This document shows positions 1 through 6,000 of a stretch of DNA of 9,378 bases, piece after piece. Every line of letters starts with the position of its first letter. The first letter of the stretch is position 1. This DNA is from a virus. Taxonomy: Duplodnaviria; Heunggongvirae; Uroviricota; Caudoviricetes. A program made the position numbers. Where the stretch lies: the IMG/VR virus record IMGVR_UViG_2711768069_000012. One strand, written 5' to 3'.

Positions 1-3000
1 AACATATCCAGGACTGGCCGGCAAACCGGGTACGCGATCTGTTGCCCTGGAAAGTTGATCTGAGCTCTCAGTAAATATCAATACGGTTCTGACGAGCCGC
101 TTACCAATGTACGGCCTTCGAACAGTTCAGGGCGTAGTTGATTGAGCGAGTGGGCGAGGACATCAATGCGCCATCCTTGTTGACTGGCAATCCAGCCCTC
201 CAGCCACAGACGGGTGGTATCGTGAATATTCCAGCCAACCACCAGCGCATCTTTACCCTTTTTTTTACGTGCCGAAGCCAGACAGATGGCGATGTAGTTG
301 ATCAGTACGCCGTCGAGGATCGCCAGCAGCGCCTGGAGAGTCGGTTGTTGGCACTGAAGCCGTCGACGCAGAGGAATAAACAAATGCGTGGTGAGCGTCT
401 GGGCGGGGTAATCCTGACCGCGCTCTTTGATCCACGTTCGCAGGCTATGCAGATTGCCGCTTTGCAAGTAAGTCAGTAATGTTTCTTGCTGATCGCGCCA
501 GCCGTTCTGCACATCAACATTTTCATTACTGAGCAGCATTTTAACTTTGCTGACCTGCACGCCGTTGTCGATCCAGCGTTTGATCTCGCGGATCCGGTCA
601 ATATCGGCATCGTTGAACAGCCGATGACCGCCGTCTGTCCGTTGCGGTTTCAGCAATCCGTAACGCCTCTGCCACGCGCGTAACGTGACAGGGATTAAGG
701 GTAAACTAACTGATTTTACAAGTTTTTATTTTACCCCACTTTCTTATGGGGCATACATGGGACACTTTCAGATAGTCTTTTGTTAAGGAGTTCTATCTGT
801 TCGTGATTGTTGTCTTTCATCCATGCTCCGTAAACATTGAATACCATTTGTGCGTTTGTGTGGCCCATCTGGCTTGCGATAAAACTAGGATTAGCTCCAG
901 CGGCAAGTGACCAGCATGCATAAGTATGCCTGGATTGGTACGATTTTCTGTGTCTCAGACCTGCGCGTTTTAAGATACTTGTCCATGACTCCCTGATGGA
1001 GTCAACTTTGTAGTGAGGTCCAGACAACTGCTGCTGTTTTATTACCTGAGGGCTAAAAACAAAAGTACATTTATGCACAGCTGTTCTCCCATATTCCCTC
1101 TGCTTTACCTCTACAGAATGTTGCTTTCCAAGCATGGTCATTTCCGCCTGGCTTTTAAGAGCATCAATAGCTGGTTGAACCAGATGAATTGTCCTTCCGG
1201 TGCCAGCATCGGTTTTTGGTGGAGTGAATTCGCCAAGTTTTGTATAATTTCTACGGATGGTTATAGTCCTTGCTTTAAGGTCTATATCTTCCCATGCCAG
1301 CGATACCAACTCCCCGTGACGAATACCCGTGTATACAGCGAGAATCCACAGGTTTTTTGTTTGTTGATGACGGCAGGCCTCAATAAAACGAATAAATTCG
1401 TCACGGGTGAGAGGATCTGGTTTTACCTTGGACTTTTTTAAGGGAGCCAGACCGTTAAATGGGTTTCCTGAGGTATAACCATTATCTGTTGCAAATTGAA
1501 ACATTCCAGCTATGGTTGTCATATAGTAGTTTACCGTGACCACTGAGCGCCCTTTTATGGAAGAAGTCTTTCCATTAGAAAGCTTTTGGTAACCGGTCAA
1601 CAAATCTCTCCTTACGAAAAGTAAATCCTCTTTTGTTATGGATGAAACCAGTTTTTTTTCACCTAACATTGGTAACATGTTTTTAATTACTGACTGGTAA
1701 CGGTTAAGTGCATTCGCACAAATCTCAATTTTCTTAAGGTCCAACCATTTTTCCGAAAGTGCCTTAACGGTTATCTCTCTTTTTCCCAGACCAAAGTGTT
1801 TCAGGTTAGGGGAATTAGGGAACTGCGCGGCGTAGTCGAAACTCCCCATTCTGATTGCAAAACAAACAGAAGTGCGAAGCTCACCAGCGATCTTCCGGTT
1901 TTTGGCGGTGTCAGGAACACCGAGGTTTTCTCTGACACGTTTGCCATTATAGTGAAACCATATACGGAGTGATCCTCCATGGTTTTCAACGCCTGTCGGG
2001 TATGATGCGTTACTCATAAAACCTCCCAGACGTCCAGGAGCATTAACAGGTTAACCGGAACTTGCATTTTTGGCACCTGGTTGTTTCTGGTTTTCGATCC
2101 ATCGCATAATTTCTTCGATGTTGTACAGGCATTCACTGTAATGCCCCGGATCACCTTCTACAGCGTAATGGCGGTATTCTTTTCCCTGCATCCATGACTT
2201 TCTTCTGGCTCGCTCGATGGTGCCAGGCTTTAGCCCTGTTGATGCAATGAGGACTCTCTCCGTACACCATTTGCTGGGGGTTATCTGATAGATGATTGTC
2301 TGCATGCCAACCTCATAAAACTTTCATCCACGGCAGTGGCACCACACTTCAAACATTCGCTTCACATCTTCTGTACAACACGGTGTTGTTTATGCAGCGA
2401 ACAATTTTTACCGGGTAACCGGCACTGTCGGTATACAGTTGTCCCTGATTAATCAGAGCGAACATTTTTTCTCCTGCTCTCTGAATAGTGAGAACTTCAG
2501 AGCCGTATGTTTGTAGCGGGTTCAATACTGATAATTTCTGCTGAGATAAGCATCCCGGCAAGCCAGAGTTCCCCGGACAGGTCTTCATCCTGGCATATCA
2601 GTTCGCCAATATTAATGGTGGCCATGATATCCGTTTTCCCTGTGCGCTCATCCAGGACTTCTTCATAAGGCAGCGTTGCGTACAGGCTTTCAATAGCGCA
2701 ATTGATAACATCCAGTCCGGTCAGATTGCCGCCGACAGTAACTTCGAATGTTTCGCGGTATTCCCATAGTCCGAAAGTTAATCGAACGGTTTGTTTTGCC
2801 ATGCGTCCGCACGACGTCAGATTCGGGTCATAGTTCATTATTTGCGGTTGAGTATTCTGGTTGTTCATCTGATTTTCCATTAACCCGGCGGTTTGCCGGG
2901 CGTGTAAGTTATTTAATCTGGATAAATGGTGTATTGGCACCGCTGGTCATGTATTGCGGCAGAGTACCGTTCCACTTGTTGATGGCTTCCAGCTCCATGA

Positions 3001-6000
3001 CGCCAGGGTTCTGGCGCAGAGCTTCACCGCGTAAACGAATAGCATCGGCCTCGGCCTGGGCTTTTGTGCGAATCGCATCTGCCTGTCCGGCAGCTTCCGC
3101 GCGCAACATGTTAGCTTCCGCTTCGCGCTGTTTTACTTCCTGTTCGCGTTGCAGGGTTTTCTGGTTCGCCGTGACTTTGGCATTAATGCTGTCGATAACG
3201 GTTGGCGGGTACTCCGGCTTACCCACATATGAGAGACTCATTACCTGAATACCTATGGGCGTCATTTCTGCCTGAATGTCTTTAAGAGCTGCATCCAGTA
3301 GTTCAGACTTCCCGCCGTCGATAAATTTGTCAGTGGTCATTTTGCTGGCCAGTCGATTGAGTGCGTCGGCGATCTTCTGGCGCAGGTCAGTGTCGGTAAT
3401 GTCATCCACGCCTTTGCGGTAGGTCTGAAACACCGTGGTAACTTTGGATGGATCAACTTTGTAGGCAACACCGATGTGATAGCCAATGGTTGTGCCGTCA
3501 CTCATCTGGAAGCTGAACGGCTCATCGTAGGTCTTCATTTGTTTGAAGGTTGGGAAGATGTAAACTTCAGTATTCCAGCCAGTCCAGTAGCGACCAACAC
3601 CGACCACCTCACCGACGCCTTTATCGTCGCCCAGTTTATTTACTTTGATGCCAACATTACCGGGTTCAACGCGATCGCAGCCGACAAGGCCAATGGTCGG
3701 CAGAACAATGGCTAAAGCAAAAATAAATTTTTTCATTTTTTATCCTTAGTGAAAGAAAGACCCTTGTAAATGGCATAAATGCAGGGCGGGGTCAGAAACG
3801 CCAGTGCAAAGCCAGAAATAACTGCTATCGTATCCTTCATGGATATAAGGAACGGAACGAGTAATCCGTAAATGCATGCGATAATTGCCAGTAAAATTAC
3901 TATTGTGAAATACAGTTTCATTGGTATGTGGTATCCCGATATTTTTAACTGACAGACAGCGCAATAAAGAGAATAATGATTTCTGTTATTGTCAGTACTG
4001 TGGCAAGGATTAAAAGCAGTTTTACTCTGCTTAAGTCACGGTTGCTTTTCATATAAACGGTTAGTAAAAAACGGAAGAATTATATTCCTCTTAATATTTA
4101 ATGTGTCACTGGCCTTCTGGCATACCATGAGTATTCAGGTCGTTAATCATTTCATCCAGAAGGAGTTCAAGCCCTTCTCGCCCCATGTCTGAAACAATGA
4201 AACCTTTATCTGGGTATGTAATGAGCATTTTCTGATAAAGAAATAGTGCTCTACCCATTCCTTCTGCCTCGCCGTATTTTTGAATTAAATTCCATTCAAT
4301 ATACTGCTGTAAGGCAAACCGAATGGGGCCGGGATATATCGTCATAACCCCATGCTTCCCGTTATATATTACGGCGCGATCTGTTGTTCCGTGTTCGTTT
4401 GGGATATCAATAGTGCCATTCTTGTTTTCTTCTTCGTTGATGAATGTCGTCACGTACAACCAGCGCCACTGGGCTACCTTCATCTCAACAGGGAGTTTAC
4501 CCAGTAATCCTGCATTGTCGGCTTGTGCGAGGCATTGAAGGATTTGCAAACCTTTCACATTAGGATGATCGAATTCACCTGCATCCAGACGGCGGATTGC
4601 GTCGTGATAATCAATAGTCATACTGCCAGTTCGTATACCTGTGGCTGTTGCTTCAGCCTGGAATTCAGTGTATTGCATGATATTTACTCCTCATCTTCAT
4701 CAGCTGGTGCAATAACGTCATATCCTGCCTTTTCTGCAATAAACAGGAATGTTGAAAGACTTCCTACAAGTTCATCGTCATGAACATGACGAATTAATAT
4801 TACTTTCCCGTTTTTGACGGTCAGCAATACTCTGGTTTGCTCGTGTTCTGCTGTTTTCTGATGCATTATTATCTCCCGTATGCTTTACGCAGAAATAAGC
4901 AGGCAATATGCATGTAATTTTCACCGTATTGTGCAATAAGGCAGGCGGTCTTGTGTGATGCCATATTCTTTATAAAAGTCACAATAAAGCCTCCTGTGGA
5001 TTAAGGTTGTAACAATCCCCGGCGATAAAACCGCAATAAACGTTCAGGGCATATTTGTTGTTATTGCGCTAATTCTTTTTCGGCAGCAGCTTTTGTATAC
5101 TCACATGCAAAACTCAGAATTTCGCTGCCGAGTGTTTTCGTTTCGTGATTACTGGACATATGTAATACCTGTGTTGCATGCAATAAATGATAAACATTTA
5201 CCGCAAATGAATCAGGCTCCAGACAAATGCCTTCGTAATTATCTTGCTGTGAGGTTGTTTCTGTCATTGCTCCTGAAGTGCATGCGAGCCTGTTTTTGAC
5301 AATTCTCTTTTCTCTAATCACTATATCGGCAACATCTATTGCCTTTACAACCTCCGGGAGAAGTTCCGGGTTTGTATAATCAAAGTCATCAACATGGAGA
5401 ACAGTTATGTTTTCGAACTTTTTCATGGCTTCCTCAGCTGACTTATATGTTCTGCTATATAGCGAGTCTCAGAAGTGTTTTCATATTGAGACTGTTTCCG
5501 CAATGATTGATAAAAATGTTCGCATGTACCTTGAAGGGCGAAGCGGCGATTATGTCACCATTGGTATTGGTTCTTCCGCAGAAGAGCTTCGCGAGATAAG
5601 GGGCAAACTTGTTGAGATGCGTCATGGTGTTGCTGCTCCTCACTTTTTGGTTGCTCCGGAGGAGTAACCTCACCAGTTAACAGGCACATCGGATCGCAGC
5701 CAAGAATATTTGCCAGTGGGATAAGCATACTGATAGTTGGTTCATACTCTCCGCTCTCCCACTGGATGATAATTTCTTCATCGAGATCGAGCAGCCTGGC
5801 GAGTTCGGCGGTTGTTAAGCCGCAGGCTTCGCGTTGGGTGCGAAGGTTAACCAGCCAGCTTTCAGGGAAGGATTGTTTTTGTTGTGCAGGAGAAGCAGCA
5901 GATAGAGCATATTCATGGATAAATTCCATTACCTCAATGCCCAGTTCCTTTGAGCGAGCACAATCCAGAAGATGGAATGTGCGTACAGCACTTAGCAAAT

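Follow-up and report, generated by a model that had tools for sequence, protein, structure and literature searches.

Proteins of the SPFH superfamily are scaffolds that in general organise and stabilise membranes, and the cages built by HflK/C, prohibitin, stomatin, erlin and flotillin have recently been seen structurally as membrane-compartmentalising machines. In Escherichia coli, HflK and HflC surround FtsH and expose their SPFH domains to the periplasm from the inner membrane, whereas QmcA, which is encoded beside the small membrane protein YbbJ in an SPFH-NfeD operon, faces the cytoplasm. A further relative is encoded by phage N4, in which gp19 (a membrane protein of 68 amino acids, aa) and gp20 (a lipoprotein) form an overlapping two-gene module; in the open-access literature searched, neither protein has an assigned function. 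Here, we describe a gene pair of the same organisation in a 9,378-nucleotide stretch of Caudoviricetes DNA (IMG/VR record IMGVR_UViG_2711768069_000012), referred to as the window in its full length. The pair consists of a 275-aa SPFH/Band-7 lipoprotein gene (2909..3736, minus strand) and, upstream of it, a gene for a 62-aa two-helix (hairpin) membrane partner (3733..3921, minus strand). We tentatively read the pair as one conserved phage module working as a split HflK/C-type membrane cage, with a probability of roughly 45%, and think that it probably serves as a membrane device in early infection, not as a defence gene expressed by the lysogen.

Residues 22-208 of the larger protein align with positions 2-176 of the 176 positions in the Pfam Band_7 profile (PF01145) at 107.8 bits, compared to a cut-off of 23.6 (8e-31), and phrog_200 is matched at 4e-114. 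The N-terminus reads MKKFIFALAIVLPTIGLVGC followed by DRV and contains a predicted signal peptide of residues 1-19 (MKK and a hydrophobic core), which ends in a canonical lipobox, L17-V18-G19-C20, according to the pattern [LVI][ASTVI][GAS]C at the signal-peptide end. The codon of Cys20 is located at 3677-3679. Position +2 is occupied by Asp21, and Asp at this position is a Lol-avoidance signal in E. coli, from which retention of the window lipoprotein in the inner membrane is predicted. A Cys directly before the SPFH domain is found in 122 of 135 full-length family representatives. Across 74 diverse homologs, the invariant columns are C20 of the lipobox, G48, W255 and G257, of which the last two are part of a C-terminal KW(N/D)GxLP segment (KWNGTLP in the window).

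A model of the SPFH protein was obtained with AlphaFold2 from a 74-sequence alignment (predicted local distance difference test, pLDDT, 89.5). It consists of the signal helix, an SPFH1/2 region at approximately residues 20-175, a 65-residue coiled-coil helix (178-242) and a C-terminal helix (244-254). When the model was compared with the PDB using Foldseek, HflC and HflK were returned first (E 2.5e-14 and 7e-14), followed by prohibitin, erlin, stomatin, flotillin, QmcA-YbbJ and the major vault protein, and all of these listed matches are ring or cage formers. The predicted combination of an SPFH domain with a long coiled-coil helix has the architecture of a cage former (Foldseek E of 1e-13 to 1e-14 for HflK/C, prohibitin, erlin and stomatin). 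Among relatives found by sequence, a solved structure exists for HflK only (PDB, E 1e-3).

The partner gene is joined to the SPFH gene by an overlap of its TGA stop with the SPFH start codon (ATGA), and the Shine-Dalgarno sequence of the SPFH gene, AAGGA, is located within it; the two are read as translationally coupled. Its 62-aa product has two hydrophobic helices, covering approximately residues 1-29 and 32-48, short basic ends, and a conserved turn, V-P-x-L-I-S-M-K-D-T, between the helices; apart from this turn, which is predicted to be periplasmic, hardly any of its mass would lie outside the membrane. It matches phrog_1130 (2e-23) and is annotated in RefSeq as WP_000780790, whereas searches against Pfam and NCBIfam gave no match. 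The ratio of nonsynonymous to synonymous substitution rates (dN/dS) is 0.21 in this open reading frame (ORF) compared to 0.9-1.5 in the other frames, thus the ORF is under purifying selection. Using a hidden Markov model (HMM) of the partner and pairwise comparisons, homologs were recognised in N4 gp19, 4MG_114, the Pseudomonas D14B ORF, a 78-aa ORF of P1-like phages, and the N-termini of the natural fusions described below. An NfeD-type partner (PF01957) was considered and rejected, as no OB-fold domain is matched and the two helices leave no space for a soluble domain. The initial annotation of this locus had described a 275-aa SPFH/band-7 protein with a lipobox and Asp at +2, its start overlapping the stop of a 62-aa two-helix membrane protein, and had pointed out that this partner departs from the usual NfeD type. 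Our results agree in all these respects, and the profile search and structure prediction which it suggested for the 275-aa protein led to the Band_7 match and the HflK/C-like model.

By tblastn, the SPFH protein was found in 383 phage genome records, whose named hosts are all Gram-negative. Among them are Shiga toxin (Stx) phages (phiP27, 98.9%), Klebsiella prophages, P1-like phage-plasmids and plasmids of the SSU5/pMT1 type; the many strictly virulent carriers include N4 and other Schitoviridae, rV5-like Vequintavirinae (4MG, PVP-SE1), FelixO1-like Erwinia phages, LUZ24-like Pseudomonas phages, phiCbK, crAss-like phages, Lak megaphages and jumbo phages. To survey the gene neighbourhoods, as had been proposed with the initial annotation, the partner HMM was applied to every ORF of at least 25 aa in 337 loci with an SPFH homolog. 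A partner match on the same strand was detected in 315 of these loci, nearly always directly upstream of the SPFH gene and in virulent as well as temperate phages; the ATGA overlap is present in 170. The 337 loci are redundant, forming 17 clusters at 70% identity, and the HMM found a partner in 10 of the 17. As judged by eye, most of the HMM-negative clusters have a divergent small two-helix ORF with a P-x-(L/M)-(I/L/V)-(S/N)-S-like turn; this ORF abuts the SPFH start in the L129 group, L102 and L103 and in phiE125 (gp44), and it does so in the Sutterella loci. The two genes are not always adjacent: the partner is located one or two genes upstream of the SPFH gene in 4MG and U47, and a partner-like ORF two genes upstream in phiEa104 (E 0.039). 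The assignment is ambiguous in phiCbK and in two truncated or distant loci. Chance is far from sufficient to explain the pairing, given its recurrence in phages that are only very distantly related.

Several individual loci deserve mention. In 4MG (L085, 2141-3379), a 54-aa soluble ORF, 4MG_115, which looks ribbon-helix-helix-like, lies between the partner 4MG_114 and the SPFH gene 4MG_116, and one or two small genes separate the pair in U47 and phiEa104. In Ca. Symbiopectobacterium (L100, 6001-6828), a stop codon interrupts the SPFH gene and only a truncated partner is left, as part of a decaying prophage copy in an insect symbiont. Public annotations of the family are inconsistent and include "serine protease", "transposase", "peptidyl-tRNA hydrolase", "RIIB lysis inhibitor", "protein QmcA" and "HflK family protein"; none of the enzymatic names is backed by the domain content.

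Natural fusions provide a second line of evidence for the pairing. An exhaustive phmmer survey yielded 223 clusters (50% identity) at E <= 1e-30, and among the best 150 representatives, 18 are N-terminal fusions of the partner to the SPFH protein with a length of 320-390 aa. Their order is small partner, signal-like helix, Cys and SPFH domain. Several contain long unrelated linkers and no internal Met, and are therefore not simple frameshift artefacts. One fusion, P0262, was confirmed in the DNA of a phage-like contig of 68.5 kb, and an almost identical copy is known from an independent source; for another, P0160, AlphaFold predicts three transmembrane helices followed by the SPFH domain (pLDDT 88.5). 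Further, in 13 of the 135 full-length representatives, an uncleaved transmembrane anchor without Cys replaces the lipobox. As lipid anchor, transmembrane anchor and fused hairpin appear to be interchangeable, the family would reside in the inner membrane with its SPFH part in the periplasm. The hairpin partner and the fusions hint at how a lipid-anchored SPFH protein gains a transmembrane fence. In one metagenomic representative, P0168, the order is reversed, with the partner fused in-frame at the C-terminus of the SPFH lipoprotein; it may be a read-through or assembly artefact, and the topology it implies clashes with that of the N-terminal fusions.

Compared with the described systems, the window pair corresponds to the two-gene module N4 gp19/gp20, which belong to the same two families, phrog_1130 and phrog_200. 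The SPFH proteins are 64% identical. The small partners share 26% identity, invariant residues Y18, P23, S27 and G37, and a P-x-(L/M)-(I/V)-S turn. The two differ in that N4 is strictly virulent and that its lipobox is followed by Tyr-Asp instead of Asp. The E. coli HflK/HflC cage is the best match in both sequence and structure, likewise combining SPFH1/2 with a long coiled coil and a C-terminal cap, and a periplasmic location of the SPFH domains is predicted for the window protein as well. However, HflK and HflC are a heteropair of paralogs with N-terminal transmembrane helices, whereas the window has a single SPFH gene with a cleavable lipoprotein signal and a separate 62-aa hairpin; and although HflC and HflK are the best NCBIfam matches of the window protein, it is not an equivalog of either. 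SPFH-NfeD operons (QmcA-YbbJ, PDB 8z5g) resemble the locus, where the SPFH gene stands beside a gene for a small membrane partner and would be co-transcribed with it, and QmcA is among the structural matches. In contrast to these operons, the partner gene comes first in the window and encodes a hairpin without the NfeD/OB-fold domain, and the window SPFH protein is an exported lipoprotein, unlike QmcA.

Other phage-encoded small membrane proteins or lipoproteins are T4 Imm and Sp, P22 SieA, T5 Llp and HK97 gp15, some of them early genes of virulent phages; however, these have no relation to the pair in sequence or fold, are not SPFH scaffolds, and are far more lineage-restricted. In P1-like RCS47 and MH445381, the SPFH pair occupies the slot in the C1-controlled ban operon which is filled by tciA-tciB-tciC in P1, but the tciABC proteins are TerB-like and unrelated to the pair. 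The replacement covers 3784-4828 in RCS47 (L341) compared to 14234-14930 in P1 (L342), and the 78-aa partner ORF is unannotated in both RCS47 and MH445381. An identity of the pair with P1 plp/upl was rejected: according to the records of P1 and RCS47, plp and upl are other genes, encoded on the opposite strand, and reference P1 does not contain the module. CRISPR interference data on non-essentiality in P1 (PMC10695390) were withdrawn as evidence on the pair together with this identity.

The window represents the left arm of a prophage of the lambdoid type in Shiga-toxigenic E. coli, inserted at the 3' end of mlrA (yehV; 78-656, minus strand), a known Stx-phage insertion site. Its region 2400-4700 is 100% identical to NZ_CP075649. 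On the leftward strand, from high to low coordinates, a cI-like repressor gene (6250-6945, minus strand) is followed by a gene for a 192-aa helix-turn-helix (HTH) protein (5555-6133, minus strand), ORFs of 121 (5061-5426, minus strand), 60 and 190 aa (phrog_1515; 4106-4678, minus strand, upstream of the module), a 35-aa ORF, the 62-aa gene, the SPFH gene, a DUF5406 gene (2497-2868, minus strand), the remnant of a DUF4222 pseudogene (approximately 2361-2465, based on the RefSeq annotation of the identical locus), xis (2051-2305, minus strand) and int (731-2017, minus strand). Thus, the module does lie on the leftward strand between the repressor and int/xis, as initially annotated. The conclusion drawn there from this placement, namely expression in the lysogen, is not supported by the signals upstream. 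Directly after the cI-like gene, there is a strong intrinsic terminator (6222..6238, minus strand; a 7-bp stem with 5 GC pairs, then T8), followed by a pL-like sigma-70 promoter, TTGACA-17-TAATAT (6157..6185, minus strand; 10/12 match in a promoter scan). Beside this promoter, operator-like repeats at 6112-6150 are common to the cI/cro spacer at 6969-7035, and the predicted elements at 6112-6238 together form a classic pL/oL arrangement. No minus-strand terminator is predicted between the pL-like promoter and the module. With the cI terminator, the pL/oL-like promoter and the absence of a later terminator, early-lytic, lysogen-repressed expression is the default expectation, and the arrangement points to pre-replicative, repressor-controlled rather than lysogenic expression of the pair in the window.

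The consensus scan gave no promoter or terminator flanking the SPFH pair itself. Just past the SPFH stop, a GC-rich hairpin, CCCGGC-AAACC-GCCGGG, is present (2884..2900, minus strand), 16 nucleotides before the start of the DUF5406 gene. It was considered as an intrinsic terminator and rejected, as it has no T-run and was not called in the terminator scan. An Rfam scan of 2909-4105 detected no RNA family. Sister prophages have an overlap between the 62-aa gene and its neighbour upstream, and the pair is located inside the operon without a spacer.

The genomic setting in other phages is similar. Homologous pairs are found in pre-replicative regions of N4 (gp19/gp20), 4MG, U47, phiEa104 and phiCbK, all strictly virulent. 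In N4, the pair is flanked on one side by the early RNAPII genes and on the other by the middle replication genes (PMC4496689). In the LUZ24-like phage U47, a sigma-70 promoter is annotated about 85 bp upstream of U47_14, the coding sequence of the partner-like ORF (HMM E 1.6e-06), and the SPFH gene follows three genes downstream. Given the pairs in virulent phages and in the C1-controlled ban operon of P1-like phages, the function is not lysogeny-specific.

Upstream of the 62-aa gene, the initial annotation had proposed a 35-aa single-helix peptide as a possible further member of the module. The ORF exists (3945..4052, minus strand) and would encode one hydrophobic helix, but it is doubtful as a gene and lineage-restricted. 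No Shine-Dalgarno sequence precedes it, RefSeq does not annotate it at the identical locus, and no family was matched in Pfam, PADLOC, PHROGs or NCBIfam. Among 48 distinct upstream variants from 80 close relatives, the frame is open in 38, and its dN/dS of 0.53, compared to about 1 in other frames, is a weak coding signature; in one variant, the start is lost (ATG to ATA). In 10 of the 48 variants, unrelated sequence takes the place of the 35-aa spacer and the 62-aa gene overlaps an unrelated upstream gene. The ORF is absent from all distant homologous loci examined. A role as third core subunit was rejected based on the weak dN/dS and the replacement in 10 of 48 variants. Because the whole spacer is swapped in these variants, there is a mosaic junction just 5' of the 62-aa gene, and the 62-aa gene and the SPFH gene form the conserved unit.

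Our proposal for the mechanism is as follows. The SPFH lipoprotein would be exported, lipidated at Cys20 and held in the inner membrane by Asp at +2. On the periplasmic face, it would oligomerise into a closed dome-like ring via its SPFH domains, the 65-residue coiled coil and the KWNGxLP segment. In the 62-aa hairpin, both termini would be cytoplasmic, and the P-x-L-I-S-x-x-D-T turn would be exposed where the membrane faces the periplasm. If the two proteins are in contact, as we infer, the hairpins would supply a bilayer-spanning fence, for which HflK/C, prohibitin and stomatin use their own N-terminal helices, and hairpin and lipoprotein together would wall off a patch of the host inner membrane. 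Transcription would start from the repressor-controlled early-left operon after induction or infection. As such a device would be wholly periplasmic or intramembrane, it could act only on the membrane as such or on those parts of inner-membrane proteins that lie in the bilayer or in the periplasm. Our preferred guess, in analogy to every characterised SPFH cage with this topology, is an inner-membrane machine with a periplasmic domain, which would be sequestered or modulated. FtsH is the leading candidate, favoured by the analogy with HflK/C, the closest relative with the same topology. The result would be an altered host membrane proteostasis during phage development. In its most specific form, this would be a viral mimic of HflK/C, dedicated to virulent and temperate phages of Gram-negative bacteria: an early split cage that creates new compartments on the periplasmic face, captures a conserved host machine such as FtsH, rewires membrane proteostasis and could bias the lysis-lysogeny decision in temperate phages. 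Taken at this level of detail, we consider the proposal unlikely.

Several points weigh against the split-cage reading. The HflK/HflC equivalog scores are far below the cut-offs (TIGR01932/TIGR01933; HflC 24.6 compared to 134.4 bits, HflK 22.7 compared to 159.4 bits), and FtsH binding can therefore not be inferred from homology. The +2 residue varies across the family (T, S, D, G and others; Tyr in N4, Glu in 4MG, Asn in phiEa104), hence retention in the inner membrane cannot be taken as proven for every member. Promoters and terminators were called by matching to a consensus only. In addition, a GTGACA-19 nt-TATAAT element, read from the sequence at 4079..4109 (minus strand) in the spacer upstream of the 35-aa ORF, is a possible weak internal promoter; it is mostly conserved in relatives with the spacer, is passed over by the consensus scan due to its 19-nt spacing, and could give some lysogenic or independent transcription. 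Finally, in the open-access literature, no experiment or functional study on any member was found, only statements that the role is not known, and a 2026 paper on a Schitoviridae phage calls the role of a homolog unclear (PMC13239085).

Among the other explanations, superinfection exclusion during lytic growth, lysogeny or both would assign the periplasm-facing assembly a role in blocking genome entry or in neutralising the ejected proteins of a second phage, in functional analogy to T4 Imm/Sp, P22 SieA or HK97 gp15. Both proteins would be in the envelope with almost no cytoplasmic portion, and the module lies in early regions of virulent phages, like T4 imm and sp, which are expressed early. 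Its mosaic and sporadic distribution is typical of accessory competition genes, and the adjacent N4 gp18 is annotated "superinfection exclusion, similar to P22 gp17". However, known superinfection exclusion proteins are small and lineage-specific, whereas in this family the N4 protein and that of a lambdoid prophage are still 64% identical, and members can be recognised in phages as different as crAss-like and Caulobacter phages. Such conservation across distant phages would, we argue, be explained better by a host target that is itself conserved, or by constraints of self-assembly, than by an arms race with particular competitors. No superinfection exclusion or defence profile was matched and no phenotype has been reported. 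We regard exclusion as rather doubtful. Alternatively, the cage might guard inner-membrane integrity and the proton-motive force, either as a stabilising or as a lysis-timing device which prolongs the productive period. In this quite unlikely case, it would counter premature holin triggering, lysis from without, pore-forming abortive-infection effectors or colicins. The stabilising property of SPFH scaffolds mentioned above, the presence of long-latency, large-burst phages such as N4 and jumbo phages among the carriers, and the slot shared with the TerB-like tciABC genes in P1-like phages are consistent with it. On the other hand, the module was never found within lysis cassettes in the loci examined, and a 2025/26 study, which attributes lysis and lysis inhibition in N4 to gp60-63, does not mention gp19 or gp20.

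The same observations speak against a virion or lysis component, which was rejected: the pair is never found in structural or lysis clusters and is not involved in the N4 lysis study. In a proteomics table, 3 peptides of an "SPFH lipoprotein" from a Vi01-like phage appear under the miscellaneous proteins of a virion preparation; these are regarded as contamination, not as an indication of a structural role. The reading favoured in the initial annotation, an abortive-infection or other defence module expressed in the lysogen, with the 35-aa peptide as third component, appears very unlikely. It could draw on the position of the module between repressor and int, on the possible weak promoter at 4109-4079 and on the open 35-aa frame in most upstream variants. 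But transcription from cI would meet the terminator, the operon is preceded by a promoter/operator of the repressor-controlled type, strictly virulent phages often carry the module, and the 35-aa ORF is missing from many sister prophages besides the distant loci. Further, neither the SPFH protein nor the 62-aa and 35-aa ORFs matched any profile of PADLOC-DB 2.0 (E <= 0.1). This, together with a search of the literature on SPFH proteins and anti-phage activity, which returned nothing relevant, is in line with the earlier remark that the locus was not recognised as a described defence system.

Some further features of the window were recorded. In its N-terminal part, the 192-aa HTH protein matches the same PHROGs as the 121-aa ORF (phrog_5451, phrog_4587 and phrog_4836), hence the two share a paralogous domain and are tandem genes downstream of pL. 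A homolog of the phrog_1515 gene, annotated as an oxidoreductase, is found directly downstream of the module in Klebsiella prophages (L004, 4980-5606); the linkage of this gene to the module is loose. At 8233-8421 and 8889-9074 (plus strand), there are two tandem units, each with the Hfq-binding small RNA isrK ahead of a C4 antisense RNA (Rfam, 58.7-78.8 bits, all above the gathering cut-offs), which precede Rha/Ash-type genes. They are a duplicated P1/P7-type immI antirepressor control within a lambdoid prophage. The long ORFs at 8176-8838 and 8835-9338, which overlap these units, are probably not all coding.

By sequence, the pair belongs to the SPFH superfamily and to the uncharacterised phage families phrog_200 and phrog_1130. 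To our knowledge, which is limited to the open-access literature, the phage-wide conservation of the hairpin partner and the natural fusions have not been described previously, and no virus-encoded SPFH cage with an assigned role was found there. The pair is easy to study, as model phages including N4 carry it and it is present in approximately 12% of complete E. coli genomes, counted as genomes with any match to the 2.3 kb around it (window 2400-4700). If the module does exclude other phages, this would be a new exclusion mechanism with relevance for phage therapy cocktails, since N4-like, rV5-like and FelixO1-like therapeutic phages carry the pair. If it instead modulates FtsH or another inner-membrane machine, it would represent a new mode of host takeover and would reconnect phages with the Hfl system, the discovery of which goes back to lambda.

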